Virus record (IMG/VR): IMGVR_UViG_3300033067_002132
Location: 129,746-193,745 of that record
From: a virus
Taxonomy: Duplodnaviria > Caudoviricetes
Length of the DNA stretch: 64,000 nt
Strand: one strand, 5' to 3'
Position numbers and translations under genes: made by a program. Position 1 is the stretch's first letter, and each line of letters opens with the position of its first letter. The notes below the pieces were generated by a model. The model saw only the letters and a list, made by a program, of their open reading frames with translations. It ran no database searches and had not been told where the DNA came from. This document shows positions 5,278-37,829 of the stretch, piece by piece.

Positions 5278-8200
5278 TTATTTCTTTTCTTCTAATATTT
5301 TAATTCTTCGTTTTAATTTTTCTATTTCTGCGCTTAATTCTTTTACAGAATTAACTAATAAATAAGTAATAGGAGAATCATAAACATGATATATATCTGT
5401 TCTTTCCGTATCATTAGGATCAAGAAATACATTTTTCTTTACTATACAATAAGGAATATTTTTAAGCTGATCTTGAGCTATAATACCTATACCTTTTAAT
5501 CCTTCTTGTGTTTCTCCACGACCATTATATTCAAATTCAAAAGGATTAATTTTATTTACTATATCTAATCCTTGTTTAAAAGATTTAATATTTCTTTTTG
5601 TTCTTGCATCTGAAACAGATCCAGAAGAACCATTTGCTCCTGATGATCCTGATGTTCCTGATGTTCCAGAAGAACCCGATGTTCCGGAAGATCCTCTAGT
5701 TCCTGAAGTTCCCGAAGAACCTCTAGTTCCTGAAGTTCCCGAAGAACCTCTAGTTCCTGAAGTTCCAGAGGTTCCTGCGGTTCCTGAAGTACCAGAAGAT
5801 CCCGAAGGTCCACTTGATCCTGTAGCTCCATTTAAACCTGATGTACCGCTAGATCCACCCCCTCCTGCTCCAGAAGTTCCAGAAGACCCCGCAACGCCTG
5901 TAACACCTGATGTTCCTGCGGTTCCCGAAGAACCAACAGCACCATTAGCACCTGATGTTCCTGCGGTTCCCGAAGAACCAACAGCACCATTAGCACCTGA
6001 TGTTCCTGCGGTTCCCGAAGAACCTGATGCTCCATTTGCTCCAGAACTTCCTGAAGTACCACGAGTACCTGAAGTACCAGAAGATCCTGTTCCTCCATCT
6101 GCTCCGTTTGCTCCTGAAGAACCAGAAGAACCTGAAGAACCAGATGCTCCTGAAGTTTTTTGTTTAATAATTCCATTTTCTATAATTAGAAAATTAGAAC
6201 TAGTTCCTGTATTAACTTTTTTAAGTTCTACTTCATTTGCTATAGAAAAAATATTATCATGTGTCGTAAAAGGTCTATCTGAAATTTCAAAACCACCTAC
6301 TACCGTTATTCCTGAATAACTAGAATAATTTGTAATAATTAATGGTTTAATATATCTAGTAGAAGGTGCAAAAGAAGTATATGCGAAACCAGTATCTTGA
6401 CCCGAAATTATTCCATAATACCATTTTCCTGTTACAGTAGGGGTTGTATCAGCCGCAATAAAATATTTTAATCCACCAGAATTTGTATTAATTAAATTAA
6501 AACCACTATCAAAACATAAAGCACCAGCATAAAACCGTCCAGAAGATGTATTTGCCCCACTTAAATGAGTTCTAGCTGCCCAAATTTTTCCATAATATAA
6601 AGTATCTGGATTAACCGCGATATATTGAGGAATAGCTAACCAATTTCCCGCAAAAGTTCCCTGATGTTTAATTTGATGTAATACTCCTCCTGGTACAGAA
6701 TAACCTGTTAATTCAGGTAAAAGTTTAATTGTAGTATTACTCATGGGGACTGAAGAAATTCCTGATGTCCACATTCCTGTTGTATATCCCCATGTTTCGC
6801 TAGAAATAGGAATAAGATTGGCACCAGCTAATCCACCCATTTGTAATTTAATAAATCCTGTTACTCTTAAACTATCATTAATTAATACATCAGGTTCATT
6901 TAAAGAATTAATTCCTGAAGTAAATAAATTTTGTATATATGCTTCTTGAAATCTATAATTATCTGCTCCTAAATTATAGGATTTAGTTACAGCAGGTCCA
7001 ATATCTCCATTAACTTGTAATAAAAAGGTATTTGTTTCAGGAGTAACACCGATACCGAAAGCATTATTTTTAAAAGAATATATAAATTGATCACCAGCAA
7101 ATTTTGCTAAAATATTATTTATTCCTGATCCTGTAGGTCCATCTGTTGTAACGGTAATAATTGTATTTTGACCATGAGCACCATCTAAAGTTCTTCCACC
7201 GGCATTAATTTTAAAAATATCATCACCACTATTTAAACCACTAGGAAGATTAATACTTCCGTTCCAACGATCATAATGAATAATAAAACGATCATTAATA
7301 GCTCTATTTAATATAGAATGACCCCCACCTATTACAGTATTTGTATAAGTTCTATATCCCGCTCCATTAAAATTAATTTGATTTATACTTGTAGCATCAA
7401 GATCTCCACTTGTAGGAGTTTGAATATAATCTCCTAAAATATGTACTGTTGTTTGAGGATTGGTTGTACCAATACCAATATTAGAACTAATTTCATGAAT
7501 AGGAGTTGTTGTATTTCCTATAGCAGTAGCAGAGGTAAATTTAACTATTCTATTTGTTGTTCCTGATACAGAAATACTACTACCAGATGTTCCCGAACTT
7601 CCTGAAGTTCCCGAACTACCTGATGTTCCTCTCGTTCCTGATGTCCCACTTGATCCAGAAGAACCATCCGCACCATTTATTCCACTTGTGCCTGAAGATC
7701 CTGTTAAACCAGAACTGCCAGACGTTCCTCTAGTACCCGAAGTTCCTGATGATCCTGTTACCCCTGAAGAACCAGAACTTCCTGAAGACCCATCGTTTCC
7801 TGATATTCCACTTGTTCCAGAAGAACCTGTAACCCCCGAACTACCTGAACTACCTCTTGTACCAGATGTTCCAGATGATCCGGTTAATCCAGAGGAACCA
7901 GAACTTCCTGAAGATCCAATTGCTCCGTCAAGGCCACTAGTTCCACTCGATCCTGTAACACCAGAACTTCCACTTGTTCCTCTAGTTCCTGAGGTTCCAC
8001 TACTTCCTGAAGAACCACTAGAACCCGAACTACCTGAAGATCCGCTTGTTCCTGAAGACCCATTAATTCCACTAGAACCGGATGAACCACTAGATCCAGA
8101 ACTACCTGATGATCCTGAACTTCCTGAATCTCCTGCTCTTGCAAATGTTAACACAATAGAATCATCTGTATTAAAAAGACCAGATCCAGTTATGTATGAA

Positions 8201-11200
8201 ACGTTAGCAGCTATATATCCAGGACTAAAAGTTGTATTAGAAGTAATATTAAAAATAGAAAAAATAGAAGAATTATATTCGCCAAAAATTCTTAATGTTC
8301 CTTTTATATTATTCGTACTATAATCTAATCCGCTTAACCAATTAAAAATATTCGCACCATCAGCATTAATATGATCGATATATAATTTATTGATACTTGC
8401 GTATGTCGTATTATTAAATTTTAAATATCCATTTCCTGGATCTACATTAGATGTTCCTGTATTAAATAAATATAATTGAGAGTCACCACCAAAAAGACCA
8501 TTAGAACCAGATGTTCCTGAACTTCCTGTAAGTCCTGAAGATCCTGATGTTCCTCTTGTTCCACTAGTTCCAGAAGATCCAGAAGAACCACTAGATCCCG
8601 AACTTCCACTAGAACCATCATTTCCTGTTAACCCTGAAGTTCCACTAGATCCTGATGTCCCGCGTGTGCCTGATGTACCTGAAGTACCACTTGATCCCGT
8701 TAACCCGCTTGAACCAGAAGAACCCGATGAACCATTAGCTCCATCAATACCTGATGTTCCTGATGATCCAGATGTACCTCGTGTTCCTGATGTTCCTGAT
8801 GATCCAGTTAAACCGCTTGAACCAGAAGATCCAGAAGATCCGCTACTTCCTGAAGAACCATCATTACCATTAATTCCACTTGTTCCACTAGATCCAGACG
8901 TTCCTCTAGTTCCCGATGTTCCACTTGACCCTGTTAAACCACTAGATCCTGAAGAACCAGAACTACCCGCGACACCATCTATACCTGATGTTCCACTTGA
9001 ACCTGACGTTCCTCTAGTACCAGAAGTTCCTGAAGAACCAGTAACTCCTGATGATCCGGAACTACCAGAAGATCCAGTTAATCCACTTGTACCCGAACTT
9101 CCTACTACTCCATCTATACCAGAAGTACCTGATGTACCTCTGGTTCCTGATGTACCAGAAGATCCATTAATACCTGATGAACCCGAACTTCCTGAAGAAC
9201 CAGTAGCACCCGAAGTTCCCGATGATCCTGATATACCTGAACTACCTGAAGAACCGCTTGAACCAGATGTACCCGCTGTTCCAGAAGAACCACTAGTACC
9301 TCTAGTACCTGAAGTCCCTGAAGAACCAGAAGAACCAGAATTTCCCGCTCTACTAAAAGTTAAAATAATATTATCATTTAAAGCAAATAATCCTGTACCT
9401 AATACATATTCTACATTTATAGCGGCATAACCAGAATTATAAATATTATTTCCTGTAATATCAAATTGATGAAAAATAGAACTATTATATTCTTGAAAAA
9501 TTCTTAATGTTCCTTTTATATTATTATTACTTAAATCTAATCCGCTAATCCAGGGTAATATATTTATATTATTTTTATTTAAATTATCAATATAAATTTG
9601 ATTAGCTCCAGAATATCCTGAAAAATTAAATCCTAAATATCCCGTTCCAGGATCTATATTTAATATTCCTGTATTAAATAAAAATGGTATAGAATCGCCA
9701 CCAAAAAGACCATTAGAGCCTGAGCTTCCCGATGTGCCTCTTGTACCAGAAGTACCAGAACTACCTGTAATTCCTGAAGATCCTGAGCTTCCTGAAGATC
9801 CAGAATTACCGTCTATACCTGATGATCCTGATGTTCCTCTTGTGCCTGATGTTCCTGAACTTCCGGTTATACCAGATGAACCAGAACTACCAGCAGATCC
9901 AGCGGAACCAGGATTACCATCTAATCCTGAAGTTCCTGACGTTCCCGAAGATCCATTTATACCAGAACTACCTGAAGTTCCTCTAGTACCAGACGTACCA
10001 GAACTTCCTGAAGATCCACTATTTCCTGAAGTTCCTGAAGAACCTGATAAACCAGAAGATCCAGGTGTTCCAGGCGCCCCGTCTATTCCTGATGTACCAC
10101 TAGAACCTGTTAATCCACTTGATCCTGAAGTTCCGCGAGTACCAGAAGTACCGGATGATCCATTAATTCCGGAAGATCCAGAACTACCACTAGAACCAGA
10201 AGTCCCGCTGCTTCCTGTTAAACCGCTTGATCCTGATGAACCATCTATACCTGAAATTCCTGAAGTACCACTAGATCCTGAGGTTCCTCTTGTTCCAGAT
10301 GTCCCCGAACTACCACTACTACCAGAACTTCCTGAAGAACCAGAACTGCCAGATGTTCCGCTAGATCCTGAATTACCATCGATACCCGAAGATCCACTAG
10401 AACCTGAAGTACCTCTAGTACCCGATGTACCTGAACTTCCTGTTAATCCTGAAGATCCCGAACTACCAGAAATTCCTGAAGATCCAGGTGTTCCCGGTAT
10501 ACCATCTAAACCAGAAGTTCCAGAACTACCACTAGATCCAGAAAGACCAGAACTTCCGCTAGTTCCTCTAGTACCAGATGTTCCAGAACTTCCTGTTATT
10601 CCACTACTACCTGAAGAACCAGACGTTCCACTAGTTCCTGAACTTCCATCTATACCAGACGTTCCAGATGTTCCTCTTGTACCAGAAGTACCTGATGTAC
10701 CAGAAGAACCCGCGGGACCACTTGAACCGGTTGCACCATCTAACCCAGACGAACCAGATGAACCACTACTTCCTGAAGATCCTGAACTACCACTTGTACC
10801 AGAAGTTCCTCTAGTTCCAGAAGTTCCAGAGGAACCACTTGTTCCAGAACTTCCATTATTACCAAACATAGTAAATGAAATTACTAAATTATCATTTAAA
10901 TTAAAAAGACCACTTCCTATAATATAATTAACAAAAATTTGAGCATATCCAGAATTATAAATATTATTACCGGTTATATTAAAAGATGTAAAATTAGAAG
11001 AATTATATTCTTTAAAAATTCTTAAATTTCCTTTAGGATTACTATTAGAAATATCAAAACCAGAAATCCAAGAAACAATATTTAATAAATCTTTATTATA
11101 GTAATCTATACATATTTGATTAACACCAGAATAACCTGAATAACCCGAATAGATTCCAGAATGATTAAAAGAAAAATAACCACTACCAGGATCAACATTT

Positions 11201-12732
11201 AAAATACCTGTATTAAAAATATATAATTGAGAATTTCCACCAAATAAACCACTACTTCCTGATGTTCCACGGGTCCCAGAGGTTCCAGAAGAACCAGAAG
11301 CACCCGTATTTCCGTCTATTCCTGAAGTTCCCGAGGTTCCTCTTGTACCAGACGTTCCTGAAGATCCTGTTTGTCCTGAACTTCCACTTGAACCAGAAGA
11401 TCCTGTTTGTCCAGAGCTACCCGAAGTTCCACTTGAACCGTTATTTCCATCTATACCCGAAGTACCAGAAGTTCCTCTTGTACCAGAGGTTCCTGAACTA
11501 CCAGTTATTCCACTACTTCCCGATGATCCAGAAGTACCTGATGTTCCAGAACTTCCTGAAAATCCAGAGGTGCCTGAAGATCCAGATATTCCACTGGAAC
11601 CTGAAGAACCACTAGAACCGTTTATTCCTGATGTACCTGATGATCCTGTTATACCTGAAGATCCTGCGCTTCCACTACTTCCTGAAGATCCTGAATTACC
11701 AGATGTTCCACTACTTCCCGTAAGTCCAGAGGAACCACTACTTCCTGTAATTCCTGATGAACCACTACTACCAGAAGATCCATTAATACCAGATGAACCA
11801 GAAGTTCCACTAGATCCTGTTTGTCCAGAACTACCTGAAGACCCACTACTTCCTGTTACTCCGCTTGATCCAGAAGTTCCACTTGAACCATTTAAACCAG
11901 ATGAACCACTACTACCAGAAATTCCACTAGAACCACTAGTTCCTGAACTTCCTGTTAATCCAGAAGATCCTGCGCTACCACTAGATCCGCTTGATCCAGA
12001 GGTTCCAGATGAACCTGAACTTCCTGATGTTCCCGAAGTACCAGAAGATCCAGATGTACCTCGTGTTCCAGACGTTCCTGAAGATCCATTAGCTCCAGAA
12101 CTACCTGAAGAACCATTATTTCCTGATGTTCCACTACTTCCTGTTAATCCAGATGTTCCAGAACTTCCTATATTACCTGCACGAGCAAAAGAAATAACAA
12201 TTCTATCATTTAAATCAAAATTATTATTAGAAATTAGTCCACTAACACCTAATTTTGTATAAAGTCCAGAAGGAATGTTATTTCCTGTTATTAAATAATC
12301 TGCAAAATAAGAACTATCGTATTCTTTAAATATTCTAATAGTTCCTTTTATATCATTATTGCTATCGTCTAAACTATTTATCCAACCACTAATATTAACA
12401 AAATTAGCATTATTATGATTAATAAAAATTTTATTTACCGCGGAATATGTACTACTATTAAAAGAAAGATATCCACTTCCAGGATTTGTATCAACAATAC
12501 TTGTATTAAATTTATATAAATGAGAATCTCCACCAAATAATCCTGAACCAGAAGCATTAAATGATCCACCGCCACCCCCCGCACCTGTTATTAATACCCA
12601 AACACCACTTTCTTTAATATATTGTTTATAAGTGGTAAATTCATGATAAATTGCACCATCTAATACTCCTGATGGTTTTGTATCAGATGGTAAACCTACA
12701 AATCTATCTCCAGCATATTTTCTAAGTGCCAT
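5278..12732 (-). CDS. Giant Gly-X-Y (G-S-S/G-T-S) fibre protein with four repeated globular domains and a C-terminal peptidase S74-type intramolecular chaperone
   Basis: Five Gly-X-Y blocks; four copies of GLFGG(D/N)S...F(A/S/T)(R/M)(A/F)G domain; NIGIGTTNP fibre motif; SDARTKRNIK...GIIAQD...LLVNSVKELSAEIEKLK chaperone; next to gpJ. Confidence 0.85.
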   Translation of the reverse strand: MALRKYAGDRFVGLPSDTKPSGVLDGAIYHEFTTYKQYIKESGVWVLITGAGGGGGSFNASGSGLFGGDSHLYKFNTSIVDTNPGSGYLSFNSSTYSAVNKIFINHNNANFVNISGWINSLDDSNNDIKGTIRIFKEYDSSYFADYLITGNNIPSGLYTKLGVSGLISNNNFDLNDRIVISFARAGNIGSSGTSGLTGSSGTSGNNGSSGSSGANGSSGTSGTRGTSGSSGTSGTSGSSGSSGTSGSSGSSGSAGSSGLTGSSGTSGSSGISGSSGSSGLNGSSGTSGSSGVTGSSGSSGSSGQTGSSGTSGSSGINGSSGSSGSSGITGSSGSSGLTGSSGTSGNSGSSGSSGSAGSSGITGSSGTSGINGSSGSSGSSGISGSSGTSGFSGSSGTSGTSGSSGSSGITGSSGTSGTRGTSGTSGIDGNNGSSGTSGSSGQTGSSGSSGSSGQTGSSGTSGTRGTSGTSGIDGNTGASGSSGTSGTRGTSGSSGLFGGNSQLYIFNTGILNVDPGSGYFSFNHSGIYSGYSGYSGVNQICIDYYNKDLLNIVSWISGFDISNSNPKGNLRIFKEYNSSNFTSFNITGNNIYNSGYAQIFVNYIIGSGLFNLNDNLVISFTMFGNNGSSGTSGSSGTSGTRGTSGTSGSSGSSGSSGSSGSSGLDGATGSSGPAGSSGTSGTSGTRGTSGTSGIDGSSGTSGTSGSSGSSGITGSSGTSGTRGTSGSSGLSGSSGSSGTSGLDGIPGTPGSSGISGSSGSSGLTGSSGTSGTRGTSGSSGSSGIDGNSGSSGTSGSSGSSGSSGSSGSSGTSGTRGTSGSSGTSGISGIDGSSGSSGLTGSSGTSGSSGSSGSSGINGSSGTSGTRGTSGSSGLTGSSGTSGIDGAPGTPGSSGLSGSSGTSGNSGSSGSSGTSGTRGTSGSSGINGSSGTSGTSGLDGNPGSAGSAGSSGSSGITGSSGTSGTRGTSGSSGIDGNSGSSGSSGSSGITGSSGTSGTRGTSGSSGSNGLFGGDSIPFLFNTGILNIDPGTGYLGFNFSGYSGANQIYIDNLNKNNINILPWISGLDLSNNNIKGTLRIFQEYNSSIFHQFDITGNNIYNSGYAAINVEYVLGTGLFALNDNIILTFSRAGNSGSSGSSGTSGTRGTSGSSGTAGTSGSSGSSGSSGISGSSGTSGATGSSGSSGSSGINGSSGTSGTRGTSGTSGIDGVVGSSGTSGLTGSSGSSGSSGVTGSSGTSGTRGTSGSSGTSGIDGVAGSSGSSGSSGLTGSSGTSGTRGTSGSSGTSGINGNDGSSGSSGSSGSSGSSGLTGSSGTSGTRGTSGSSGTSGIDGANGSSGSSGSSGLTGSSGTSGTSGTRGTSGSSGTSGLTGNDGSSGSSGSSGSSGSSGTSGTRGTSGSSGLTGSSGTSGSNGLFGGDSQLYLFNTGTSNVDPGNGYLKFNNTTYASINKLYIDHINADGANIFNWLSGLDYSTNNIKGTLRIFGEYNSSIFSIFNITSNTTFSPGYIAANVSYITGSGLFNTDDSIVLTFARAGDSGSSGSSGSSGSSGSSGSSGINGSSGTSGSSGSSGSSGSSGSSGTSGTRGTSGSSGVTGSSGTSGLDGAIGSSGSSGSSGLTGSSGTSGTRGSSGSSGVTGSSGTSGISGNDGSSGSSGSSGVTGSSGTSGTRGTSGSSGLTGSSGTSGINGADGSSGSSGTSGTRGTSGSSGTSGSSGTSGSSISVSGTTNRIVKFTSATAIGNTTTPIHEISSNIGIGTTNPQTTVHILGDYIQTPTSGDLDATSINQINFNGAGYRTYTNTVIGGGHSILNRAINDRFIIHYDRWNGSINLPSGLNSGDDIFKINAGGRTLDGAHGQNTIITVTTDGPTGSGINNILAKFAGDQFIYSFKNNAFGIGVTPETNTFLLQVNGDIGPAVTKSYNLGADNYRFQEAYIQNLFTSGINSLNEPDVLINDSLRVTGFIKLQMGGLAGANLIPISSETWGYTTGMWTSGISSVPMSNTTIKLLPELTGYSVPGGVLHQIKHQGTFAGNWLAIPQYIAVNPDTLYYGKIWAARTHLSGANTSSGRFYAGALCFDSGFNLINTNSGGLKYFIAADTTPTVTGKWYYGIISGQDTGFAYTSFAPSTRYIKPLIITNYSSYSGITVVGGFEISDRPFTTHDNIFSIANEVELKKVNTGTSSNFLIIENGIIKQKTSGASGSSGSSGSSGANGADGGTGSSGTSGTRGTSGSSGANGASGSSGTAGTSGANGAVGSSGTAGTSGANGAVGSSGTAGTSGVTGVAGSSGTSGAGGGGSSGTSGLNGATGSSGPSGSSGTSGTAGTSGTSGTRGSSGTSGTRGSSGTSGTRGSSGTSGSSGTSGTSGSSGANGSSGSVSDARTKRNIKSFKQGLDIVNKINPFEFEYNGRGETQEGLKGIGIIAQDQLKNIPYCIVKKNVFLDPNDTERTDIYHVYDSPITYLLVNSVKELSAEIEKLKRRIKILEEKK
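5693..5766. repeat. Exact 27-bp tandem repeat x2.7 within the fibre gene
   Basis: cctctagttcctgaagttcccgaagaa at 5693, 5720 and partial at 5747. Confidence 0.9.
5904..6024. repeat. Exact 45-bp tandem repeat x2.7 within the fibre gene
   Basis: cacctgatgttcctgcggttcccgaagaaccaacagcaccattag at 5904, 5949 and partial at 5994. Confidence 0.9.
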
Positions 12733-12763
12733 TTCCTTTTACCTTTATAGAATAATTACACTT
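12733..12763 (-). promoter_or_regulatory. Putative late promoter GTGTAA plus AAGGTAAAAGGAA leader/RBS of the fibre gene
   Basis: Minus strand AAGTGTAATTATTCTATAAAGGTAAAAGGAAATG; near-identical layout upstream of gene M. Confidence 0.65.
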
Positions 12764-15700
12764 ATGTTTGCGAACTTATTATAACAGATTCAGAATCATC
12801 ACCGAAACTATTAGTTAAAGTTCTTCTTCCATCAATTTGTGCTGTTGATAATTTCCAAATATTATTATTATCGTTAAAATTAGTAAAAATTAATTGTTGA
12901 CCTATTTTCATAGTATTTGTGACTCCACTAAAGTTAATACTTGTTATATTACTTAATGGAAATCCAGTTCTTAACATACTATTATAATTATTAATTATCT
13001 CCATGTCAAAAGAATCTATTACAGAAAAACAAATATATCCAGTTGGAGAAAAATATCGATCTTCATAAGGAATAGGAGTTTGAAAAGATTTAGTATAAGA
13101 ATTATAATTAGAATAACCTGTATAAATATTAAATTGACTAGGAATAGGATTATTTCCTGTTATATTTTCTCCTGAAAAAAGACCTGTACTAAAATAAATA
13201 TAACCACCAATAATATCTTTTGGCATAGTTCCTGAAACATATGTAATATTAATATTTAAACCACAATCAATAAAATGTCTAGTTATATATCCACTTACTA
13301 TTTTATTAATACCTGTAGATAATGCTAATCCAGTAATTCTTTCATTATTTATATATAATAAATCATATCCATAAGGATTTGTCCAAGGTTCATGATATCC
13401 AGTAGATAAATCTAAATAATTTCCAGCAGAAGTTCTTCCAAAATTATCAACCGCTTCAACTACAACATCATATTTTCTAAATGGCCCACCACTTGCTAAT
13501 ACATTATCTTTAAAATCAAAACTTTTAGATATTTCATTAGAATAAATAGGTATTCCTGTATATTCAAAATAAATAGTTGAAGAAGGAGTATTTGTATAAG
13601 AAGGTTCTCTTATAGATAATCTAAAATTAAAATTTGTTGGCAATTGTTCTCCTGTTGAACCCATTTGCCATGTAAAAACTGGACTTAATTCATAAAATCT
13701 ATCAATATTTGTTTTAGATGCTCCAACTATACCATCATATAACCCTGTTGGATAAAATTGACCAGTATTAATGTTTAAACTACTAATAACAACATCTAAA
13801 ATAGGAAAAATTTGAGGAATATTAAAAAATCCTGTTATACTATCATTTGAATATGTATTATTTATATAATTATATCCCCATAAACTATAAATAAAATCTC
13901 CTGTATTTTCAAAAGAATAATCATAATTAGAAATCTCAGGTGATAAAAATCCAACCAAATATTTATTATCAGGTACAAAATTATGATCTATTTTATCACC
14001 CGAAGGACTAATAAAAATAGCAGTATGAGTGTTATTTACAGAATTATTATCTTTTGTCCAATTTAAAGATACCTTTTTAGAACTAATACTTACATTATCT
14101 ACTGTTGTATATCCATATGTGGGTTTAGAAGGAATTGTTTGTGGTAATAATGAATTTCTATCAAAATTAATTCCTGATTCTATTTCTATATATTTTTGTG
14201 CATTATATTGTAAACCAATAACGTTCAATTCATTTTCTTTTTCTTCTATATTAATAATTCTATATTGATCTTGATATGGATCTAGAAATTTACTTGTTGC
14301 ATCATAAGTTCTATCTCCCGAATTCATATGAATAGACCAAACAGTATTTTTTGTTATTTCATAATTTTCTATATCAAATGGATTAGGATTAAATTCAAGT
14401 TGTAAATAAGAGTCTTTATTTATACAATTAGTTGGTGTAGCATTAAAAATTCCACTTTGAATTAATCCTCTTCTTATATTAGAAATTTCACTACTATTCA
14501 TATCAGAAATAGCAGTCGCATTATAATTATATGTAGGAGTAATTAAATTTAATACATAATTAACACCCGTATTAATAATTGGTATAGAATCTAATTTAAT
14601 TATTGCTTTATTAGAAATAGATTCTAATTCAAAATCTTTAATTCTTCCCGCGTATCGATATAATTTTTTATTATTATCTATTACATTTATTACGTCTCCG
14701 GGTTTTAAATAACTTGCTTCTAATCCCGCATTAAAACTAATCGTTTCTGTTTCTAAATTTTCTGTTAATAAAACCGCTCTACCAAATCTTAATGCTTGTC
14801 CACGACTAGTACATCCAATAGCATCAATTTCTATTTCCCTTATTCCATATTTTCTAATCCCATCTACATCTTCTACATATTCAATCGCAGGTTTATAAAA
14901 ATTTCTTTTATCATTATATCTTACTATGGCTACGGTATGTCTTACTCTTCTACTACTACTAGCATAACCAAAATTACCATCTTTAATATTTGAATTTGTA
15001 AATGTTGTAATGGGATCTTTTGGAGAATCTTGTGTCGCAGAAATTACTCCATTTCCAAAATAAACTAAACCTCTAAAAATCGAAGCCATATTATTAATAA
15101 CTTTATAAGCTTCTTCTTTATTATTTAAAATAATATTACAAGCAAATCTTGGTTCCCATCCACCATATCCATCAGGAACTAAAACATCACAATATTTACT
15201 TATTTCATATAACGACCATTTATCTACATATGTACTATCAATATATTTTCCTAATCCGTAATTTTCATTAGTAATAATATCATAAAAGCACCAAGCCGGA
15301 TTATCTGTCCAATATTTGTTTTCTTTAAAAGAACCATCCCAAGGAGTAGATTCATTATATCTTTTTAAAATAGGATCATAATTAGATGGAATTTTTACTT
15401 TTATTAATCTTGTATCAAAAAATCTATTAGGAATTTGACTAAAATATTCCGAATTAAAACGAGAACGAACTATAGCAGAATTTGGATTAGTATGTATATC
15501 TTCATAAATTTCTGTAATACTATCTACATAAATAGTATTTCTTTCTAATGAAGTTAAAGAATCAGGACTTCTTCTTGCTATTTTAATTTCCCATCCTAGA
15601 AAATCTCTATTATTTACTGTAGGATCTTTGCCATAAAAAGAAATTTTATCTGTTTTAATAAATCCATATTGAATTTTACCAGTAAATTGAACCTTTTTAG

Positions 15701-17975
15701 CTAATGTAAAATTTTTTGGATTATTTAATGCATTAGAATAAATAGGGCGAAAATAAATATAATAAGTCATTAACGCATCAATTAAATCACCGTTTTCCGC
15801 CGATACTGTTTTTTGTAAAGTTTGTATTCTTATATTAATAAAAGCCGCTGTACATTCAGGATTTAATATTCTATATGTTTTTACATGATCAGCTTCTAAA
15901 ATAGGTAATCCTAATTCATTAAATTGTGTCGCTCGTAATCTTTCTCCTATAGTTCTACTAATTGTTGCTTTAGGATTTATATAATTTAAAATCGCACCAT
16001 TTGGTAATCCAGGCGTAAAAGAAACATCTATACTTTGATAATTATATTTATTATCTGAACTTACTAATGGAACTTCATTCCAATAAATAGATCTAAACCA
16101 ATTTATATTTGTTTTTGGAGCATTTTGATAAGGAATAAAGGTCGCTTTTGTATATCCAATTTCATAAGGATTTCCTTCAAAAATATATTCTCCATTTACT
16201 AATCCTTCTATTTCGCCTTCTGATAATAAATCTAATACTTCGATTGAAGTAGTAGAAAGAGCACGTTTAACTTTTTTACCGAATTGATCTTCTACATCAA
16301 CAACCCCTTCTGGAACTTCATCAAAAGTTTTTTCTGAATCTGTACTTGCAGTAGACGTTGAACCCTCTTGTATGGGTTTACTTATTGCAGCATATTTATA
16401 TTCATATTCAAAACTTTCTGTACTTTTATAAGTTCTATCATTTATTAATCGAACTAAATAATAATTATAAGAATTTTTTCCATAAGTTGTAAAAGCCCCA
16501 CCAACAAAAATTTTTGAATCTCCATCTCTCATAGTTGGTTGATTGGTTGTACCATTTGTTATTAAAAAATCAAAAATTTTAACATAATTAACAGGTCCAT
16601 TAAAACCAATCCCATCTTGAACTTTTCCAAAAGGATCTCCATATCCATTGCTTGAAAAAGATAAATCTAATGTTCCATCAGAAATTGAAACGCGACAAAA
16701 ATTATTAACGTTTGGAACTTTTTGTCCAGCATTTGTAAATTTTCCACCTAATAAAATATAATCCCATGTTGATTGATTATATTCTTCTATACAATTAACA
16801 GATGTCTCCGTATCATCATCATAAATAGGTCTATAATTTTCTACCACCTGAAATTTTCCTAAATTTATTCCTGTTTCTTGTCTAATAAATTTTACTACTT
16901 TAGTAATAGTTGTTGCACCTAAACTAGTAAATTTACCACCAACCATTAAAATTTTATTATTAAAATCATTATGATATCTTAATAATTTAATACAATTAAC
17001 TCTATCATTAAGATCAATATCTAATCCAGTAGTTAATTCCATTATTTTTAATGTTCCGGTAGCATTTTTTATACGAGTAATATAATTATTATTAGGAGAT
17101 CCTATAACAGTAAAATCCCCACCAATATAAATATCAATATTATCATCGTCTTTTACAGAAACGGTTGGATTTGTCGTCCAATCTATTTCTATTGTTCTGA
17201 CCGCGCCATTTAAAAAAGAAGGGTTAAATGAAGTAATTTCTTTTCCATCGGGTGTTATTTTTTTTAAAAAACCAGAAAAACTACCACCTATTAAAATAGA
17301 TCCATCATCTTTATCAAAAAATTTTCTATTTATTTGATCGTATCCTTTCATTACTAAAGCACCTGAATCTAAAGAAACTCCTCCATTACTCGGAGATCTA
17401 AAACTCTGTATAATAAAACCATCATAATCGACACAAAGAATATTTTCATATGAATCAGTAATATAATTATCATCATAATCAATAACTCCTAATTGATTTT
17501 GATCGGGTGGTAAATTTCCTAAAATATCATATTTAAAATCACCAGAAATATAAACTCTTTTAGATTTTTCATGAATTAAAATAGATGTAATACTATTACT
17601 TCTAGAAACAACAACAGGTTTACCATCTTTTGTAGTATTTCTAGGAATTGTTATGGTAAAATTATCTTTTCCATAAAGAGCATTTCCATAAGGATCAACA
17701 ATAATAACAGTAAAAATTCCTATATTACTTAATTCATTTTTTTTCTGTACTAATAAATGTAATAAAGTATTTGGTAATGTTTTAATAGCACAATATAAAT
17801 TTTCCATATATGGGGAAAATTTAGCAGTACCTTGTTCTAAAGTTGATCTTCTTAAATCACAAACAAAAGGTTCATACATTTGTGAAACATGTAATATATT
17901 AAATGGAAAATTTAAACTAGGAAAAACATCCCATTTAATAGTTGGTGCTTGAGATTTTGTATTATAAACGGTCAT
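12762..17975 (-). CDS. Tail tip / central fibre protein J (lambda gpJ-like) with N-terminal beta-propeller-like extension
   Basis: VLDLLSEGEIEG, KVKIPSNYDP, WDGSFK..WTDNPAWCFYD, YCDVLVPDGYGGWEPRF, GCTSRGQALRFG; position after M-L-K-I. Confidence 0.9.
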   Translation of the reverse strand: MTVYNTKSQAPTIKWDVFPSLNFPFNILHVSQMYEPFVCDLRRSTLEQGTAKFSPYMENLYCAIKTLPNTLLHLLVQKKNELSNIGIFTVIIVDPYGNALYGKDNFTITIPRNTTKDGKPVVVSRSNSITSILIHEKSKRVYISGDFKYDILGNLPPDQNQLGVIDYDDNYITDSYENILCVDYDGFIIQSFRSPSNGGVSLDSGALVMKGYDQINRKFFDKDDGSILIGGSFSGFLKKITPDGKEITSFNPSFLNGAVRTIEIDWTTNPTVSVKDDDNIDIYIGGDFTVIGSPNNNYITRIKNATGTLKIMELTTGLDIDLNDRVNCIKLLRYHNDFNNKILMVGGKFTSLGATTITKVVKFIRQETGINLGKFQVVENYRPIYDDDTETSVNCIEEYNQSTWDYILLGGKFTNAGQKVPNVNNFCRVSISDGTLDLSFSSNGYGDPFGKVQDGIGFNGPVNYVKIFDFLITNGTTNQPTMRDGDSKIFVGGAFTTYGKNSYNYYLVRLINDRTYKSTESFEYEYKYAAISKPIQEGSTSTASTDSEKTFDEVPEGVVDVEDQFGKKVKRALSTTSIEVLDLLSEGEIEGLVNGEYIFEGNPYEIGYTKATFIPYQNAPKTNINWFRSIYWNEVPLVSSDNKYNYQSIDVSFTPGLPNGAILNYINPKATISRTIGERLRATQFNELGLPILEADHVKTYRILNPECTAAFINIRIQTLQKTVSAENGDLIDALMTYYIYFRPIYSNALNNPKNFTLAKKVQFTGKIQYGFIKTDKISFYGKDPTVNNRDFLGWEIKIARRSPDSLTSLERNTIYVDSITEIYEDIHTNPNSAIVRSRFNSEYFSQIPNRFFDTRLIKVKIPSNYDPILKRYNESTPWDGSFKENKYWTDNPAWCFYDIITNENYGLGKYIDSTYVDKWSLYEISKYCDVLVPDGYGGWEPRFACNIILNNKEEAYKVINNMASIFRGLVYFGNGVISATQDSPKDPITTFTNSNIKDGNFGYASSSRRVRHTVAIVRYNDKRNFYKPAIEYVEDVDGIRKYGIREIEIDAIGCTSRGQALRFGRAVLLTENLETETISFNAGLEASYLKPGDVINVIDNNKKLYRYAGRIKDFELESISNKAIIKLDSIPIINTGVNYVLNLITPTYNYNATAISDMNSSEISNIRRGLIQSGIFNATPTNCINKDSYLQLEFNPNPFDIENYEITKNTVWSIHMNSGDRTYDATSKFLDPYQDQYRIINIEEKENELNVIGLQYNAQKYIEIESGINFDRNSLLPQTIPSKPTYGYTTVDNVSISSKKVSLNWTKDNNSVNNTHTAIFISPSGDKIDHNFVPDNKYLVGFLSPEISNYDYSFENTGDFIYSLWGYNYINNTYSNDSITGFFNIPQIFPILDVVISSLNINTGQFYPTGLYDGIVGASKTNIDRFYELSPVFTWQMGSTGEQLPTNFNFRLSIREPSYTNTPSSTIYFEYTGIPIYSNEISKSFDFKDNVLASGGPFRKYDVVVEAVDNFGRTSAGNYLDLSTGYHEPWTNPYGYDLLYINNERITGLALSTGINKIVSGYITRHFIDCGLNINITYVSGTMPKDIIGGYIYFSTGLFSGENITGNNPIPSQFNIYTGYSNYNSYTKSFQTPIPYEDRYFSPTGYICFSVIDSFDMEIINNYNSMLRTGFPLSNITSINFSGVTNTMKIGQQLIFTNFNDNNNIWKLSTAQIDGRRTLTNSFGDDSESVIISSQT

Positions 17976-17976
17976 A

Positions 17977-20583: not shown

Positions 20584-20587
20584 AATT

Positions 20588-21112: not shown

Positions 21113-21172
21113 TCCTTTTACCTTATATTAATTATATTACACTTTTATTCAAAAAAATTGTGTAATTTTAAT
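21113..21172. promoter_or_regulatory. Divergent pair of GTGTAA motifs (minus 21137-21142, plus 21160-21165)
   Basis: Minus AAGTGTAATAATATTAATATAAGGTAAAAGGAATG; plus TTGTGTAATTTTAATATG. Confidence 0.65.
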
Positions 21173-22069
21173 ATGATGGGAACATTTGTTCCATTTTTAT
21201 CAAAGACAAGGGAAACGGAAAGGTTTTTATTGGACGGAAAGGAAATTCCGGGAGTTCAAAACGTTCAATTAGGATATAGCCTTAACGCTTCTCCGCTTCT
21301 ATATTTAGGTAATCAAAATATCAATTTTATACCTAGAGGAACACAAAATGGTCGGGTTTCTATTAATAATTGGATTATTAGTAACGATTATTTTATTCCA
21401 TTTACGGGAAATTCTGGTTGTAATGGATATTTAATTAATTCTAGACCACCTACAGGAACTATAAGAAAAGAAGTAAGAAAATTTTATGATTTAAATATCG
21501 TAGGATTTATATCAGGATATTTAAGTTCTTATAATCAAAGTTGTGTTATAGGTGAGGTTCCTAGAACTCAAGTAGATTTTACTGTTTTTGGAGATATTGG
21601 AGAATTAGATAGTATAAATCATCCAATAGTAGAAACTGATTGGAGAACGAAAGTTATGACTGATCAATTAAATAGTAGATATACTATTTCAAATGGTTAT
21701 AATATTGATTTAAATATAGATGAAATTAATGCTAGTCGAATTATTTCTTATGATTTTACAATTAACGTTAATAGAGATCCTAAATATATTCCGGGATTAA
21801 AAATGCCTGTTTATATTCAAACAAAATCTCCAAAAGAAGTTACATTTAATTTTCAAATAGAAATAGATTCGTATAAAATGGATTATTTAACTAGTTATCC
21901 AAATATACAAAATAAACAAAATATTTCATTAACATTAAAAGATTTTGAAACGGATACTACTATTATTAATTATTCTTTTGATAATATGTTATTAATTTCT
22001 ACAGAAAGAATATCTAATGTGGATAATCTTGTGACAGCAAATCTTACATATAAAGGATATTATATTTAA
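21173..22069 (+). CDS. Structural protein, probable tandem tail-tube (Hcp-like) folds
   Basis: Beta-rich, two internally similar halves; start moved to ATG 21173 (the TTG at 21077 overlaps gene M). Confidence 0.5.
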   Translation: MMGTFVPFLSKTRETERFLLDGKEIPGVQNVQLGYSLNASPLLYLGNQNINFIPRGTQNGRVSINNWIISNDYFIPFTGNSGCNGYLINSRPPTGTIRKEVRKFYDLNIVGFISGYLSSYNQSCVIGEVPRTQVDFTVFGDIGELDSINHPIVETDWRTKVMTDQLNSRYTISNGYNIDLNIDEINASRIISYDFTINVNRDPKYIPGLKMPVYIQTKSPKEVTFNFQIEIDSYKMDYLTSYPNIQNKQNISLTLKDFETDTTIINYSFDNMLLISTERISNVDNLVTANLTYKGYYI

Positions 22070-22902
22070 TGTTAATTAATTTTAAAGATATTCAAGTTTC
22101 TGTAAGTGGTATTCCTATAATGGTAGAAAATGCCTCTTTTAGTTATGATTCTAATTTATTACCTGTTCATTCTATAGGTTATAAAAATTGTGTTGGATAT
22201 GTAAATTCAGGACCAAATAACTATAAATTATCATTATCTTATATAATGGAAGTAAATAAAGATCCAAATTTTACAGGATTTTTTAATTATATTCAAAATA
22301 GAAATATATTTGGAGAAACAGCTATTCCTATTGTTATAGGAAATATAAGTGGTATGTATTATCCCGTATCTTTTAATATAGAAACAAATACTCCTTCTGA
22401 TATTATCATAGGCAAAATAGAATATGTTTCTTTTTCACCTGTTTCTGGAAATTTATCAGAATCTAATCCTTTAAATTATAATGTTTCTAATAATAATGAT
22501 ATAGCACATTTATGGAATACTAAAATGCTTTTAGATAATAATCATGCATATGGAAAATCTATTTTAGATTTTAGTTATTCAGCTAATATTAACTGGGAAC
22601 CACAATACACTATTGGTAGTATTTATCCAACAAAAGTATTATTATTAGATGGAAATGAAAATATAAATCTTTCCACAACTATTTATAATAGTATTCCATA
22701 TTCAGGACAATTATTTTCTGATTATTTTAATTGTAATGAAGCATTAATAAGTATTTGATCTATGTCTTCTTTAAATAATATTAATGATATATCTAGATTA
22801 ATTATAAGTGGTATAGAAAAATTCTATATTTCTTCTTCTAATATAGATTTTAATTCAGAGGGATTATCTAAACCTACAATAACAATAAGTAGAACTTTTT
22901 AA
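22069..22902 (+). CDS. Paralogous structural protein interrupted by an in-frame TGA at 22756-22758 (readthrough, pseudogene or sequence error)
   Basis: Same frame stays open for 47 more codons to TAA 22900-22902, 1 nt before the next ATG; the extension matches the C-terminal strand pattern of both neighbours. Confidence 0.55.
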
Positions 22903-22903
22903 T

Positions 22904-25006
22904 ATGAGATATTCTTATAAAGATCTTAAAATAAGATTAAATAATATAGATATATTAGTAAACAATGCTAATTTAAATATTGTTTATCCTACTGAATATT
23001 ATAAAGAAATAGGTGATAAATATTCAAATAAAACTTTTAATAATACCCCAAATATAGCATCAACATTAAGTTTATCATATTATTTACAAAGAAATGATTT
23101 TTTAAAATATTATATATCTAATGATAATCTGATTAATTGTTATTTCGCAGGTATTAATTTATATAGTGGTTATTTAAAATCTTATAATTTATCTTTAGAA
23201 GAAAATTCTCCTATATTAATAGATGCAACACTTTTATTTTGGTCTAAACCAGAAGGATTTATTACGGGAATTGAATCTTCTATTTTAAATAATTTATCTT
23301 TTTTACAATCTTCAGATATAGTTATTAATTCAATATCGGAAGAATGGTTGCCTTATAATGTAGATATAAAAAAATTATCTTATAATTATGAGGCGGATAT
23401 AATACCACAAAATTTAATTAAATCATTCGATAATATAAATAATGGTGGGCAAAATCCAGATGAAATTATTTTTAGAGATAAAAATGTTAATATAGAAATA
23501 GAAGGATCTTTTTGGGCAACAACAGGTTCTTTTAATCTTTTAGGGAATAAAATTATAGGTAAAATTAATTTTGTTGATACTCAATCTCCAATTTTTACAG
23601 ATAGTTTATTAATTAATGGAAATATTATTAATTTTTCAAATGAAATACAATCAAAAAATTCAGCAAGCTCTAAAATTTCTGTACAACAAAATATTTTTCA
23701 AAATCCTCCTATAATTTATGGATCTAGTTCACAGCCATTTAATACTAATAATTTAGTATATGTACAATGTACAAATTTAACAAAAGTATTAGAAGTAAAA
23801 TTAAATAATAAAAATATAGAATATTCTATTTTAGGCGACAATTTATTTTTTGAAACTCCTGCTGATTCAGTTTCAGGAAAATTATTTATTAAAACGGAAG
23901 GTGGAGAAATATCTTCTGGTGTTAATATCTTACCTAAAAATATGACAATAGAAAGAATAATTCCATATACAGGATATTCTGGACAAAATATTTTAATTAC
24001 AGGATCAAATTTTTATGATATTTCTAATATTTATTTTGGAAGTAAAGACTGTAATAAATTTGAAGTAGTATCAAATAATTTAATATATGCAGAAGTACCA
24101 TTTAATGCTTCTTATAATTATATACAGATATCATCTATTTTTAGAGGAAAAACTGCTTCTTCACCAGAAAAATTTGTATCTTTACCTATTATTACGAATT
24201 TTAATCCTCAATATGTAGATAACGGAGATCTTATTACTATTTCTGGAAGAAATTTTAATTCAGTAACAGGTGTATATATTAATAAAATTAATTCTGCTTT
24301 TACTTTAGTGAATGATTATAAAATTACTGCAACCGTACCTAATGGTTTAATTTATGGAGGAATTTCTTTATATGCTCAAAGTGGATTAGTATCAAATAGT
24401 TCTTTTTTCTTAAAACCAAATGTAAAAATTACTGGATTTTCGCCAAATATTGTACAAGAAGGTGATACATTAATAATTTCAGGAAAAAATTTCGATGTTA
24501 GTTATATGTATGAATATTCTGAAGAAAATAAATATGCTGTATTATTTCAAAAAAATAAATTAGGAAAATTCTCTATTATAAATTCTACAACACTTCAAGG
24601 ATTTGTTCCTACAGATATGATCGCAGGAGGAGTATATATTTTAGATCAAGATGGAGCTTCTATATATCCAAGTGGTAAAAATATTAGTAAAAAAATTACT
24701 GTTCCGGTGATAGAAAGTTTAAATAATACTATAGCTTATAGTGGTTTACCATTCTATACAACAATAGTAGGAGAAAATTTAGAATTTGTAAGTGGAATTT
24801 GGTTAAATTCAGTTAATTTAGCTACTCCCGTTAAATTTATAATAAGTGGAACTAATTTCTATAAAGATTTAGATGGATTTAAAATTGATTTAGTTAATTA
24901 TATTCCACTAGGATTAAATATTACAGGAGCATATGATTTATCTGTTGTCTCTACGGGAAATATTTATGGTGTTGCTCCTGTAAATTATAGAATTAAATTA
25001 AAATAA
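22904..25006 (+). CDS. Structural protein: tube-like N-terminal region plus about five IPT/TIG Ig-like domains
   Basis: N-terminus (YKDLKIRLNNIDILVNNA) parallels the previous gene (FKDIQVSVSGIPIMVENA); repeats P.I..F.P....G..I.ISG.NF. Confidence 0.7.
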   Translation: MRYSYKDLKIRLNNIDILVNNANLNIVYPTEYYKEIGDKYSNKTFNNTPNIASTLSLSYYLQRNDFLKYYISNDNLINCYFAGINLYSGYLKSYNLSLEENSPILIDATLLFWSKPEGFITGIESSILNNLSFLQSSDIVINSISEEWLPYNVDIKKLSYNYEADIIPQNLIKSFDNINNGGQNPDEIIFRDKNVNIEIEGSFWATTGSFNLLGNKIIGKINFVDTQSPIFTDSLLINGNIINFSNEIQSKNSASSKISVQQNIFQNPPIIYGSSSQPFNTNNLVYVQCTNLTKVLEVKLNNKNIEYSILGDNLFFETPADSVSGKLFIKTEGGEISSGVNILPKNMTIERIIPYTGYSGQNILITGSNFYDISNIYFGSKDCNKFEVVSNNLIYAEVPFNASYNYIQISSIFRGKTASSPEKFVSLPIITNFNPQYVDNGDLITISGRNFNSVTGVYINKINSAFTLVNDYKITATVPNGLIYGGISLYAQSGLVSNSSFFLKPNVKITGFSPNIVQEGDTLIISGKNFDVSYMYEYSEENKYAVLFQKNKLGKFSIINSTTLQGFVPTDMIAGGVYILDQDGASIYPSGKNISKKITVPVIESLNNTIAYSGLPFYTTIVGENLEFVSGIWLNSVNLATPVKFIISGTNFYKDLDGFKIDLVNYIPLGLNITGAYDLSVVSTGNIYGVAPVNYRIKLK

Positions 25007-26930: not shown

Positions 26931-26932
26931 AA

Positions 26933-28861: not shown

Positions 28862-28862
28862 A

Positions 28863-31943: not shown

Positions 31944-31945
31944 AA

Positions 31946-37828: not shown

Positions 37829-37829
37829 A

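Follow-up and report, generated by a model that had tools for sequence, protein, structure and literature searches.

Genes and modules of the locus

The window, that is, the whole 64,000-nucleotide stretch analysed here, belongs to a 194-kb phage and encodes a collagen-like fibre, the tail protein gpJ, a protein with TIG repeats and several glycosyltransferases (Table 1). In the outer tail proteins of this phage, serine or threonine stands immediately before glycine (hereafter [ST]G) at about twice the chance rate. The fibre is built of six collagen-like blocks interleaved with repeated globular modules of ~120 residues; after these come a unique region (aa 1720-2194) and, at the C-terminus, an endosialidase-type chaperone. 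In its AF2 model, the gpJ C-terminus is similar to tandem FN3 arrays and to the lambda tail tip (8IYK_F). The 700-residue protein carries IPT/TIG domains (PF01833, 62.6 bits against a gathering score of 20.9, with three matches in the genome search). Its TIG half has no match in the PDB by phmmer, and tblastn of GenBank phages returned no relatives of this protein or of the gpJ C-terminus. For a further protein of 886 residues (p886), encoded outside the window, Foldseek yields only Ig-like matches, at low TM-score.

Table 1. Features bearing on the [ST]G excess, with their coordinates in the window unless another contig is given
Feature	Coordinates	Strand	Basis or remark
714-aa fusion, GT1-like domain plus Aah/TibC-type protein O-heptosyltransferase domain (aa 362-713)	162..2306	-	Candidate "reader" enzyme
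896-aa protein with GT1 and FkbM methyltransferase domains	2569..5259	-	Pfam, NCBIfam; between the fibre and the TibC-like gene
2484-aa fibre	5278..12732	-	Pfam Collagen, E=6e-179 in 16 stretches; Peptidase_S74 at aa 2374-2421
gpJ, C-terminal 427 aa (aa 1311-1737), FN3/Ig-like array	12762..14045	-	AF2 model, [ST]G counts
gpJ, N-terminal part and core (aa 1-1310)	14046..17975	-	PHROG 31, central tail fiber J, at aa 628-1310
229-aa protein of a divergent "trio" adjoining gpM	22069..22758	+	6/14 Gly after S/T
700-aa TIG protein, N-terminal 300 aa	22904..23803	+	[ST]G 3 against 2.0 expected, not enriched
700-aa TIG protein, TIG/IPT half (aa 301-700)	23804..25006	+	Pfam TIG, E=3.5e-17
Genes for GT9-like (393 aa) and GT1-like (649 aa) proteins, immediately following the TIG-protein gene	25749..28882	-	Pfam; weak NCBIfam matches
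886-aa protein (p886), outside the window	L002:11770-14430	-	Ig plus beta-helix modules

Size and distribution of the excess

A preliminary description of this DNA had counted 20 of 35 glycines preceded by S/T in the gpJ C-terminus and 19 of 48 in the TIG protein, and both counts are exact. The expected numbers are 6.9 for gpJ aa 1311-1737 (z 6.0) and 7.6 for the TIG protein (z 4.6). In DnaE, for which about 4 of 45 had been given, 4 of 47 glycines follow S/T against 4.2 expected, and in the fibre the figure is 405 of 579 against 208. Correction for composition leaves the enrichment in place: in three proteins it persists (z 4.6-6) whether whole proteins or local stretches of 20 residues are shuffled. 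There is no enrichment of the reverse dipeptide G[ST], and the excess is therefore directional. The residues preceding glycine are encoded by ACA, AGT, TCA, TCT and ACT, which include both Ser codon families and Thr; with five different codons in use, the signal lies at the peptide level.

These controls bear on whether the excess could stem from an over-used oligonucleotide or from low-complexity patches rich in S, T and G. In favour of such an artefact, the coding-strand tetranucleotide CAGG (read as CCTG on the + strand) is over-represented 2.45-fold across the genome, but this excess may largely come from the fibre repeats. The codon diversity rules out a DNA motif, and local low complexity is ruled out by the G[ST] control and by local shuffles, which give the same expectation as global ones. 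An origin of this kind is thus very improbable.

The excess is unevenly distributed. Among the 88 ORFs of 200 aa or more, the top five z-scores all belong to fibre and tail-tip genes. Pooled, five tail-tip proteins reach an observed-to-expected ratio (O/E) of 1.97, whereas 15 other structural-block proteins, including the tape measure, the portal region and gpL/K/I, stand at 1.07, below the remaining ORFs (1.30). The bias thus does not extend across the structural proteins, as had been proposed, nor is it spread evenly along those that show it. The whole excess of gpJ falls in its C-terminal 427 residues, aa 1-1310 being at expectation (6 against 7.4 and 5 against 5.7), and that of the TIG protein falls in aa 301-700, where 16 of 35 glycines follow S/T against 5.7 expected. 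Four of these 16 sites belong to a signature, hydrophobic-x-hydrophobic-[ST]-G-x-N-F, found once per domain. The 229-aa protein of the trio has 2.2 expected sites (p about 0.015), and its orthologues in three relatives (L006, L007, L094) are likewise enriched.

About 80% of the [ST]G dipeptides in positions 5278-25006 reflect the G-S-S / G-T-S collagen periodicity of the fibre. The non-collagen remainder sits in Ig-like arrays, namely the FN3-like array of gpJ, the TIG repeats, and the Ig and beta-helix modules of p886. The claim that unrelated folds share the bias is accordingly doubtful, the enriched non-collagen segments being mostly Ig-like beta-sandwich arrays. A hydrophobic residue occupies position -2 at 57% of [ST]G sites, against 37% in the background. 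Ser and Thr are roughly equally enriched before Gly, with 14 T-G and 6 S-G within gpJ.

The collagen-like fibre

A census of the fibre gives 452 triplets, dominated by GSS (191) and GTS (108). Position X is occupied by Ser (44%) or Thr (32%) and position Y by Ser (70%). The long uninterrupted G-X-Y periodicity of PF01391 is present. The Pro-rich X and Y positions or charge pairs that stabilise a collagen helix are not seen among the 452 triplets: Pro amounts to ~0-1% at X and Y, Asp to ~5% at Y, and the main charged triplet is GTR (28/452). Because the triplets carry Ser at Y, a Ser precedes each next Gly, and a proline-free G-X-Y repeat of this type yields [ST]G directly. The non-repeat portion had also been described as biased, and it is: the non-collagen parts hold 52 [ST]G against 21 expected, and the unique region 20 against 11.1.

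Glycosylated collagen-like proteins offer a parallel. BclA of Bacillus anthracis is a glycosylated collagen-like protein with GXT repeats, and annelid cuticle collagen bears galactose on Thr at Y. Like these, the fibre has a hydroxyl residue at Y just before the next Gly, the residue that bears the sugar in the known systems, and sugar or transferase genes lie close by. The fibre differs in having Ser at Y, Ser/Thr at X and no Pro, its neighbouring transferases belong to other families, and its sugar is only a candidate.

Conservation within families and comparison with other phages

Some 12 columns of the gpJ C-terminal family have [ST]G in 8-19 of 21 representatives, each of which stands for a separate 50%-identity cluster. 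One such column has S/T in some members and N/D/E in others, the pattern of ordinary Asx/ST turns. Three IMG/VR relatives, all fragments of genomes (11-31% complete), retain the excess: 17 against 7.4 in L013, 13 against 5.7 in L014 and 12 against 5.2 in L016. TIG-repeat proteins of two relatives go further, with 82/130 (L007) and 87/145 (L094) glycines after S/T. Lambda gpJ has no excess (13 against 14.5 expected), and 149 gpJ representatives pooled give an O/E of 1.10, which rules out a generic effect of the fold. High values in the p886 family (O/E 1.6-2.5) are confined to the nearest subclade, and the others are near 1; at conserved-Gly columns p886 has S/T where homologues carry N, D, E, P, Q or A.

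Base composition has to be weighed here. AT pressure could turn Ala, Gly or Pro before a required Gly into Ser or Thr through single GC-to-AT changes, while the deamidation-prone Asn-Gly and Asp-Gly would be avoided in long-lived, exposed tail proteins. Across 43 p886 homologues, [ST]G O/E climbs with a proxy for AT-richness (rho 0.41, p=0.006), [AGP]-G falls (rho -0.69), and the fractions of S/T, A/G/P and N/D before Gly add up to about 0.6 at either extreme, as such a replacement would have it. N-G is also depleted in four tail proteins (O/E 0.57 against 0.93 in the rest of the genome), but D-G is not (1.25), and a change from Asn to Ser opposes AT pressure. The other proteins of the genome, including the 15 from the structural block, lack any rise, and S/T occupies the gpJ family columns in representatives that vary in composition. 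The tail proteins of four phages of 31-36% GC show no rise either: O/E is 0.7-1.5, with two non-significant outliers of 2.0 and 2.5 (counts of 6 and 2), and none is significant. Generic AT-richness is weakened as an explanation by these four phages and by the genome's own other proteins, and neutral or stability-driven replacement as the source of the excess is improbable.

A TibC-type O-heptosyltransferase and neighbouring transferases

By its sequence, the 714-aa fusion marks this phage as encoding a true Aah/TibC-class (BAHT) protein O-heptosyltransferase. It matches TibC (4RB4) with E=5e-61 and scores 319.6 bits with TIGR04414, against a curated equivalog cut-off of 200, over profile positions 13-374 of 374. 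In TibC, the catalytic base is Asp-110 and the iron finger is formed by Cys 339, 342, 358 and 370 (PMC4358343). In the alignment to 4RB4, the equivalent of D110 (Ala in that chain) is kept, and so are those of C339/342/358/370 (C-x-x-C, W-C-P, E-C-T). More than 1285 homologues of the fusion exist in metagenomes. Enzymes of this class transfer heptose from ADP-heptose to Ser. As indirect evidence on the sugar donor, another part of the genome encodes a heptose-7-phosphate-kinase-like protein, which scores 265 bits, below the cut-off of 345; neither GmhA nor RfaE domain II was found.

The arrangement recalls the TibC-TibA and Aah-AIDA-I pairs of E. coli (TIGR04414; 4RAP/4RB4): the equivalog score, the catalytic Asp and the four Cys are shared, and in both settings beta-rich surface proteins are encoded next to the enzyme, in E. 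coli as its acceptors. The phage differs in that its enzyme is fused to a GT1-like domain and its sugar transfer is a prediction; no beta-helical autotransporter, the partner expected for this class, is seen beside the fusion, whose neighbours are the collagen-like fibre, gpJ and the transferase-methyltransferase. The [ST]G-enriched genes flank transferase genes here and in relatives (L006/L093, L094, L096), and a TibC-type gene is close by in every clade member with enough context. One relative of the TIG trio, L007, was set aside as a transferase-free comparator: 3 kb further on it encodes an 1851-aa fusion ending in a TibC-type domain, together with a G-T-S fibre. A tblastn search of 80 gpJ loci with the transferases of the window found no TibC-type gene within 10 kb of gpJ, and GT9-like or GT1-like homologues adjoin gpJ in four of them only (L019, L022, L035, L081). 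The recurrent partner of the TibC-type enzyme is the collagen-like fibre and not the Ig-like arrays.

Are the sites glycosylation acceptors?

The S/T before a strand-boundary Gly could be O-glycosylation sites of the TibC-type enzyme, of other phage transferases, or of both. Selection for many sites would then have produced the excess, the Gly providing a flexible loop that the enzyme pulls out, and no linear sequon of the N-X-S/T kind would be involved. This is plausible, if on the doubtful side, because enzymes of the Aah/TibC type are reported to use the residue at the start of a strand-loop-strand loop. The presence of a true BAHT-class enzyme with conserved catalytic and iron-finger residues argues for it, as do the position of enriched genes beside transferase genes and the heptose-7-phosphate-kinase-like gene. 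One mapped TibA site is N-S313-G-G (PMC4358343), and the E. coli heptosyltransferases are described as promiscuous (PMC5000012). The family is nevertheless poorly matched to a linear signal: Aah is reported to read a structural motif without a consensus sequence (PMC3835316), a motif search in ETEC found Asn and Thr at +1 and not Gly (PMC5000012), and these descriptions contain no +1 requirement that would make [ST]-G a sequon. Moreover, TibC is reported to modify Ser and not Thr (PMC4358343), whereas Thr-Gly is as enriched as Ser-Gly in the phage.

Comparators in which the enzymes were not detected, among them lambda gpJ and the four AT-rich phages, lack the bias, which may fit an acceptor role. 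The p886 homologues are at baseline in records where searches for GT1 and TibC-type genes gave nothing, although CheckV rates all of these records as incomplete and weak GT2 matches occur in one; the same holds for a homologue in the complete genome of a Synechococcus phage, in the first 50 kb of which no transferase is annotated. The association is, however, confounded by phylogeny and GC content, high values occurring only in contigs of <=38% GC and low ones only at >=46%. Between sister phages, the S/T of [ST]G are kept somewhat more often than other S/T (62% against 47%, p=0.054), but the TIG protein retains 8 of 19 sites and loses 11 in a sister phage with the same transferases, no better than its other S/T. 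Structurally, S/T is the first loop residue following a strand at about one third of the gpJ sites in the AF2 model, and in the p886 model the after-strand-end and tight-turn classes account for 5 of 33 sites. In both models, [ST]G and other Gly alike lie mainly at strand edges and in loops, and secondary-structure mapping does not tell the two apart. In addition, most of the count is collagen periodicity, and the gpJ sites are largely family-conserved columns. The first proposal, a short modification motif, thus stands in part: the bias is real, composition-corrected and clade-specific, and a TibC-type enzyme is encoded, but the enzyme family is described as reading structure and not a linear sequon.

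Ser-Gly xylosylation of animal proteoglycans is the one familiar case of O-glycosylation in which Gly at +1 is known to define the site; it is Ser-only, needs acidic flanks and is carried out by a eukaryotic Golgi enzyme. The phage shares the Gly at +1, but a related enzyme is not seen in it. In mycobacteriophages, virion proteins are modified by transferases that the phage encodes beside its structural genes, the reported targets being capsid and tail-tube C-terminal extensions. The present phage is similar in that its own transferases adjoin structural genes, and different in that the mycobacteriophage systems are not known to involve an [ST]G rule or a TibC-type enzyme. Mycobacteriophage virion glycosylation is cited in PMC11256854.

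A proposed inherited architecture

The excess is real and has mixed origins, and we consider it best read, with somewhat less than even confidence, as protein architecture inherited within families and not as a demonstrated sequon. In gpJ, the TIG protein, the 229-aa protein and p886, S/T would precede Gly mostly at or near beta-strand boundaries, in a local hydrophobic-[ST]-G pattern carried by Ig-like beta-sandwich arrays and a beta-helix. The positions appear largely common by descent within each family or subfamily, and the hydroxyl residue and Gly would together form a strand end or turn; we infer that the role of the motif is structural. The analysis itself shows the statistics and their concentration in these modules, together with the conserved columns and the lack of bias in generic comparators. 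The retention of the excess in the IMG/VR relatives, the hydrophobic preference at -2, the near-equal enrichment of Ser and Thr, the placement of [ST]G on the two AF2 models, the single TIG signature per domain, the confinement of the excess to TIG repeats, the fibre as explained by its triplet census and the lack of excess in the 15 other structural-block proteins also count towards this architectural reading.

Strand ends and turns containing Gly are familiar as ST-turns, Asx-turns and type I turns. The phage sites resemble ordinary ST/Asx turns and the IPT/TIG signature in their hydrophobic-[ST]-G pattern at strand boundaries and in the alternation of S/T with N/D/E at one column. They are unlike them in a frequency far above that of lambda gpJ, other gpJ and other phage tail proteins, and in spanning several module types. 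That the [ST]G habit extends over several kinds of module within one phage clade counts against inherited architecture, as do an idiom dictated by neither fold nor base composition (lambda gpJ, the 149 gpJ representatives, the four AT-rich phages) and the restriction of high values to one subclade of the p886 family. A purely structural reading gives no reason for the clade-wide coincidence with a TibC-type gene.

Implications for the tail tip

If the sites are structural only, they represent a lineage habit of building turns, and serve mainly to warn that a dipeptide bias should not be taken for a sequon. It is also conceivable, though unlikely, that the tail tip bears a glycan coat in which TibC-type and other transferases sugar S/T at the start of Gly-containing loops. 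The targets, again only tentatively, would be the FN3-like, TIG and beta-helix modules of gpJ, the TIG protein and p886, plus the collagen-like fibre. Were such a coat present, selection for loops would have doubled the [ST]G frequency, and the phage would be the first whose virion carries a strand-loop-strand glycosylation code. If the sites do act as acceptors, an enzyme widespread in phages would be decorating the receptor-binding tail proteins with sugars, with a bearing on host range, on resistance to proteases and antibodies, and on substrate choice by TibC-type enzymes.

Organisation of the tail-tip region

The window forms the terminal 64 kb of one phage contig (193,745 bp; 100% complete according to CheckV), with a GC content of 24-30% outside the fibre region. 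Its minus strand carries a lambda-type tail-tip module comprising gpM, gpL, gpK, gpI, gpJ, a collagen-like fibre, and two transferase genes. Three plus-strand genes (the "TIG trio") diverge from gpM, the final one encoding a TIG/IPT-repeat protein (the "TIG protein"). Further transferase-like genes, DnaE, a sugar-nucleotide cassette, and a ribonucleotide reductase follow. DnaE is apparently split, with its PHP domain in a separate protein, and the reductase gene contains an intein that carries a LAGLIDADG endonuclease domain. An additional protein of 886 residues (p886), encoded outside the window, combines Ig-like domains with a β-helix; its homologues lie close to gpJ in two other loci (L003 and L004).

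Features discussed in the text (window coordinates unless a genome or locus is named)
Feature	Position	Strand	Remarks
714-aa GT1/GT9 protein	162-2306	-	GT1-like + Aah/TibC-type O-heptosyltransferase fusion
GT1 + FkbM-methyltransferase protein	2569-5259	-	
Fibre, 2484 aa	5278-12732	-	
gpJ, 1737 aa	12762-17975	-	
TIG/IPT protein, 700 aa	22904-25006	+	
DnaE polymerase core, finger, HhH domains	29367-31988	-	
PHP-domain protein	32591-33349	-	
Sugar-nucleotide cassette	34539-47025	-	RmlD-like reductase, GDP-mannose 4,6-dehydratase, 3,5-epimerase-like protein, C-methyltransferase, O-methyltransferase, FkbM and other methyltransferases
Ribonucleotide reductase	48914-52213	-	
p886	genome 121770-124430 = L002:11770-14430	-	5.3 kb before window
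RfaE-domain-I-like heptose-7-phosphate kinase	genome 33893-34876 = L104:5893-6876	+	outside window; 265 bits, below 345 cut-off
Recurrent-module loci	L094:408-21756; L096:8303-23552; L093:529-12151; L095:3129-12166		

Size and location of the Ser/Thr-Gly excess

Ser or Thr directly precedes Gly ([ST]G) at 20 of the 35 glycines of the gpJ C-terminus (residues 1311-1737; 6.9 expected, z-score 6.0) and at 19 of 48 in the TIG protein (7.6 expected, z-score 4.6), exactly as counted by hand in the preliminary description. The low count given there for DnaE also stands (4 sites, 4.2 expected), with a glycine total of 47 rather than about 45. The strongest non-collagen excess is that of p886, where 38 of 82 glycines follow Ser or Thr (z-score 5.9). 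Expectations were obtained from whole-protein shuffles and from shuffles inside 20-residue blocks; both give the same values, so that neither composition nor local patches rich in Ser, Thr, and Gly explain the excess, and the bias outlasts composition correction. The reversed order, G[ST], shows no such enrichment and in gpJ is depleted (11 vs 19.7 expected). Since the codons preceding Gly are mixed (ACA, AGT, TCA, TCT, and ACT), the signal lies at the peptide level, and a single DNA word is ruled out as its cause.

The bias had been described as common to virion proteins of unrelated folds; the first part of this description fails, and the second is doubtful. The five tip proteins pooled reach an observed over expected ratio (O/E) of 1.97, but fifteen other structural-block proteins, including the 3457-residue tape measure, a 904-residue Gly-rich protein, the portal region, and gpL/K/I, show no excess (1.07, vs 1.30 for the remaining ORFs, or 1.23 in another pooling of the rest of the genome). 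As to folds, the gpJ C-terminus is FN3-like, its model resembling both tandem FN3 arrays and the tail tip of lambda, the 700-residue protein carries TIG repeats, and the front part of p886 matches tandem Ig-like domains. The N-terminal 570 residues of gpJ (6 vs 7.4), its conserved core (5 vs 5.7), and the first 300 residues of the TIG protein (3 vs 2.0) are flat, while 16 of 35 glycines follow Ser or Thr in the TIG half.

The collagen-like fibre

In the fibre, 405 of 579 glycines are preceded by Ser or Thr. It contains 452 G-X-Y triplets in six blocks, mainly GSS (191), GTS (108), and GTR (28), with Ser (44%) or Thr (32%) at X, Ser (70%) at Y, and practically no Pro. Ser-Gly thus arises automatically from Ser at Y, bearing out the earlier remark that the repeat blocks place Ser or Thr before most glycines, and this periodicity is the source of ~80% of the [ST]G sites within the span under study (5278-25006). 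The non-collagen parts are enriched as well (52 vs 21), although this set includes four copies of one repeated module; in the unique region of residues 1720-2194, the count is 20 vs 11.1 (p=0.002).

The repeated module is globular, ~120 residues long, starts with L-F-G-G-D/N-S, and lies between collagen-like blocks (residues 40-185, 501-623, 1014-1129, and 1418-1533); the fibre of another locus, L094, shows the same arrangement, with modules starting with G-L-Q-Y-T-F. Across the whole genome, the plus strand has a 2.45-fold excess of the tetranucleotide CCTG (CAGG in the coding sense of the minus strand), much of which is suspected to come from the fibre repeats.

Conservation within families and control phages

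Inherited architecture is the explanation that we favour, tentatively and at somewhat less than an even chance. Its best direct support comes from the conservation of the gpJ sites as columns of the family and from the way in which the TIG sites follow the domain repeats. Among 149 gpJ representatives (pooled O/E 1.10), ~21 possess this C-terminal domain, each standing for a separate 50%-identity cluster, with O/E of 1.6-2.9. In twelve columns, [ST]G is present in 8-19 of these 21; at J1474, J1549, J1555, J1646, and J1671, Gly almost always has Ser or Thr before it where it occurs, and at J1359 Ser/Thr interchanges with Asn, Asp, or Glu. Three IMG/VR relatives of gpJ (L013, L014, and L016) retain the excess. 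For the TIG trio, 82 of 130 glycines follow Ser or Thr in the TIG-repeat protein of L007 and 87 of 145 in that of L094, and a sister phage with the same transferases, L006, has 11 sites vs 6.3 expected.

The 42 homologues of p886 range from 0.8 to 2.5 (pooled 1.29), only the nearest subclade being high. At conserved-Gly columns, p886 has Ser or Thr where homologues have Asn, Asp, Glu, Pro, Gln, or Ala. Within this family, a higher AT proxy goes with a higher O/E (rho 0.41) and with less [AGP]-G. Replacement of small residues under AT pressure, combined with avoidance of Asn-Gly, may be a contributor to the excess, although we consider this improbable.

Lambda gpJ has no excess (13 vs 14.5; C-terminal 402 residues, 5 vs 4.4). 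Tail and baseplate proteins of phages TP901-1, 11b (Flavobacterium), 80α, and PSA (31-36% GC) mostly lie at 0.7-1.5, none of them significant, including two small-count outliers (2.0 and 2.5). Homologues of p886 in IMG/VR records of 46-57% GC reach 1.2-1.4; these records lack GT1 or TibC-type matches, one having weak GT2 matches. The homologue in a complete Synechococcus phage genome is at 1.19, with no annotated transferase in the first 50 of 54 kb, and P0022 and P0007 (1.2 and 0.95) have no transferase within 10 kb. Neither fold nor AT-richness alone therefore yields the bias. High O/E occurs only in contigs of at most 38% GC and in one phage clade, so that transferase content, GC, and phylogeny are confounded in this comparison.

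A candidate reader enzyme and its putative acceptors

Residues 362-713 of the 714-residue fusion match TibC (4RB4, E=5e-61); the protein scores 319.6 bits against TIGR04414 (cut-off 200) and keeps the catalytic Asp and four iron-finger Cys. The same fusion has >1285 homologues in metagenomes, many on 120-200 kb contigs. In L006/L093, L094, L096 (the L007 phage), and L095, its neighbours include repeat proteins of the proline-free G-[ST]-S type, and in L006, L094, and L096 also the TIG trio; the TibC-type domain of L096 forms the C-terminal end of a fusion of 1851 residues (43% identity). Other large phages thereby carry a conserved module that combines the TIG trio beside gpM, multi-domain transferases with a TibC-type domain at their end, and collagen-like fibres of proline-free G-[ST]-S repeats. 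The heptose-7-phosphate-kinase-like gene adjoins a ribose-phosphate diphosphokinase, with a nicotinate phosphoribosyltransferase close by; neither GmhA nor RfaE domain II was found in the genome. The content of the sugar-nucleotide cassette suggests a methylated deoxy-sugar donor alongside heptose.

Ser or Thr before Gly might alternatively mark putative acceptor loops glycosylated by the TibC-type enzyme, a possibility that we hold to be real but doubtful. It would explain why several module types of one clade share the habit beside a TibC-type gene, and it agrees with the published recognition rule, by which enzymes of this type are reported to use the residue that opens the loop of a strand-loop-strand element. 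TibC modifies Ser-313 (N-S-G-G) and Ser-322 (T-S-A-A) of TibA, and does not modify Thr (PMC4358343). However, Thr-Gly outnumbers Ser-Gly in gpJ (14 to 6), a Gly preference is not known for the TibC family, and a published motif search of ETEC O-glycosites gave Asn and Thr at +1 rather than Gly (PMC5000012). Of the 19 TIG-protein sites, 11 have been lost in the sister phage, whose overall Ser/Thr retention is 62% at [ST]G sites vs 47% at other Ser/Thr (p=0.054).

Only a minority of sites, moreover, stand at a loop start. In the gpJ model (pLDDT 77, strand list read off), Ser/Thr opens the loop that follows a strand in ~7 of 20 sites and directly precedes a strand in ~5, other glycines being similarly placed. 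For p886 (AF2 model, pLDDT 79, good over residues 1-740), loops, tight turns, and strand edges all carry sites, in a distribution close to that of other glycines. Among the 83 non-collagen sites, K-G, P-G, and N-G being depleted in these proteins, hydrophobic residues occupy position -2 in 57% (background 37%), Ile being enriched 2.5-fold and Val 2.1-fold, which gives a local hydrophobic-[ST]-G pattern.
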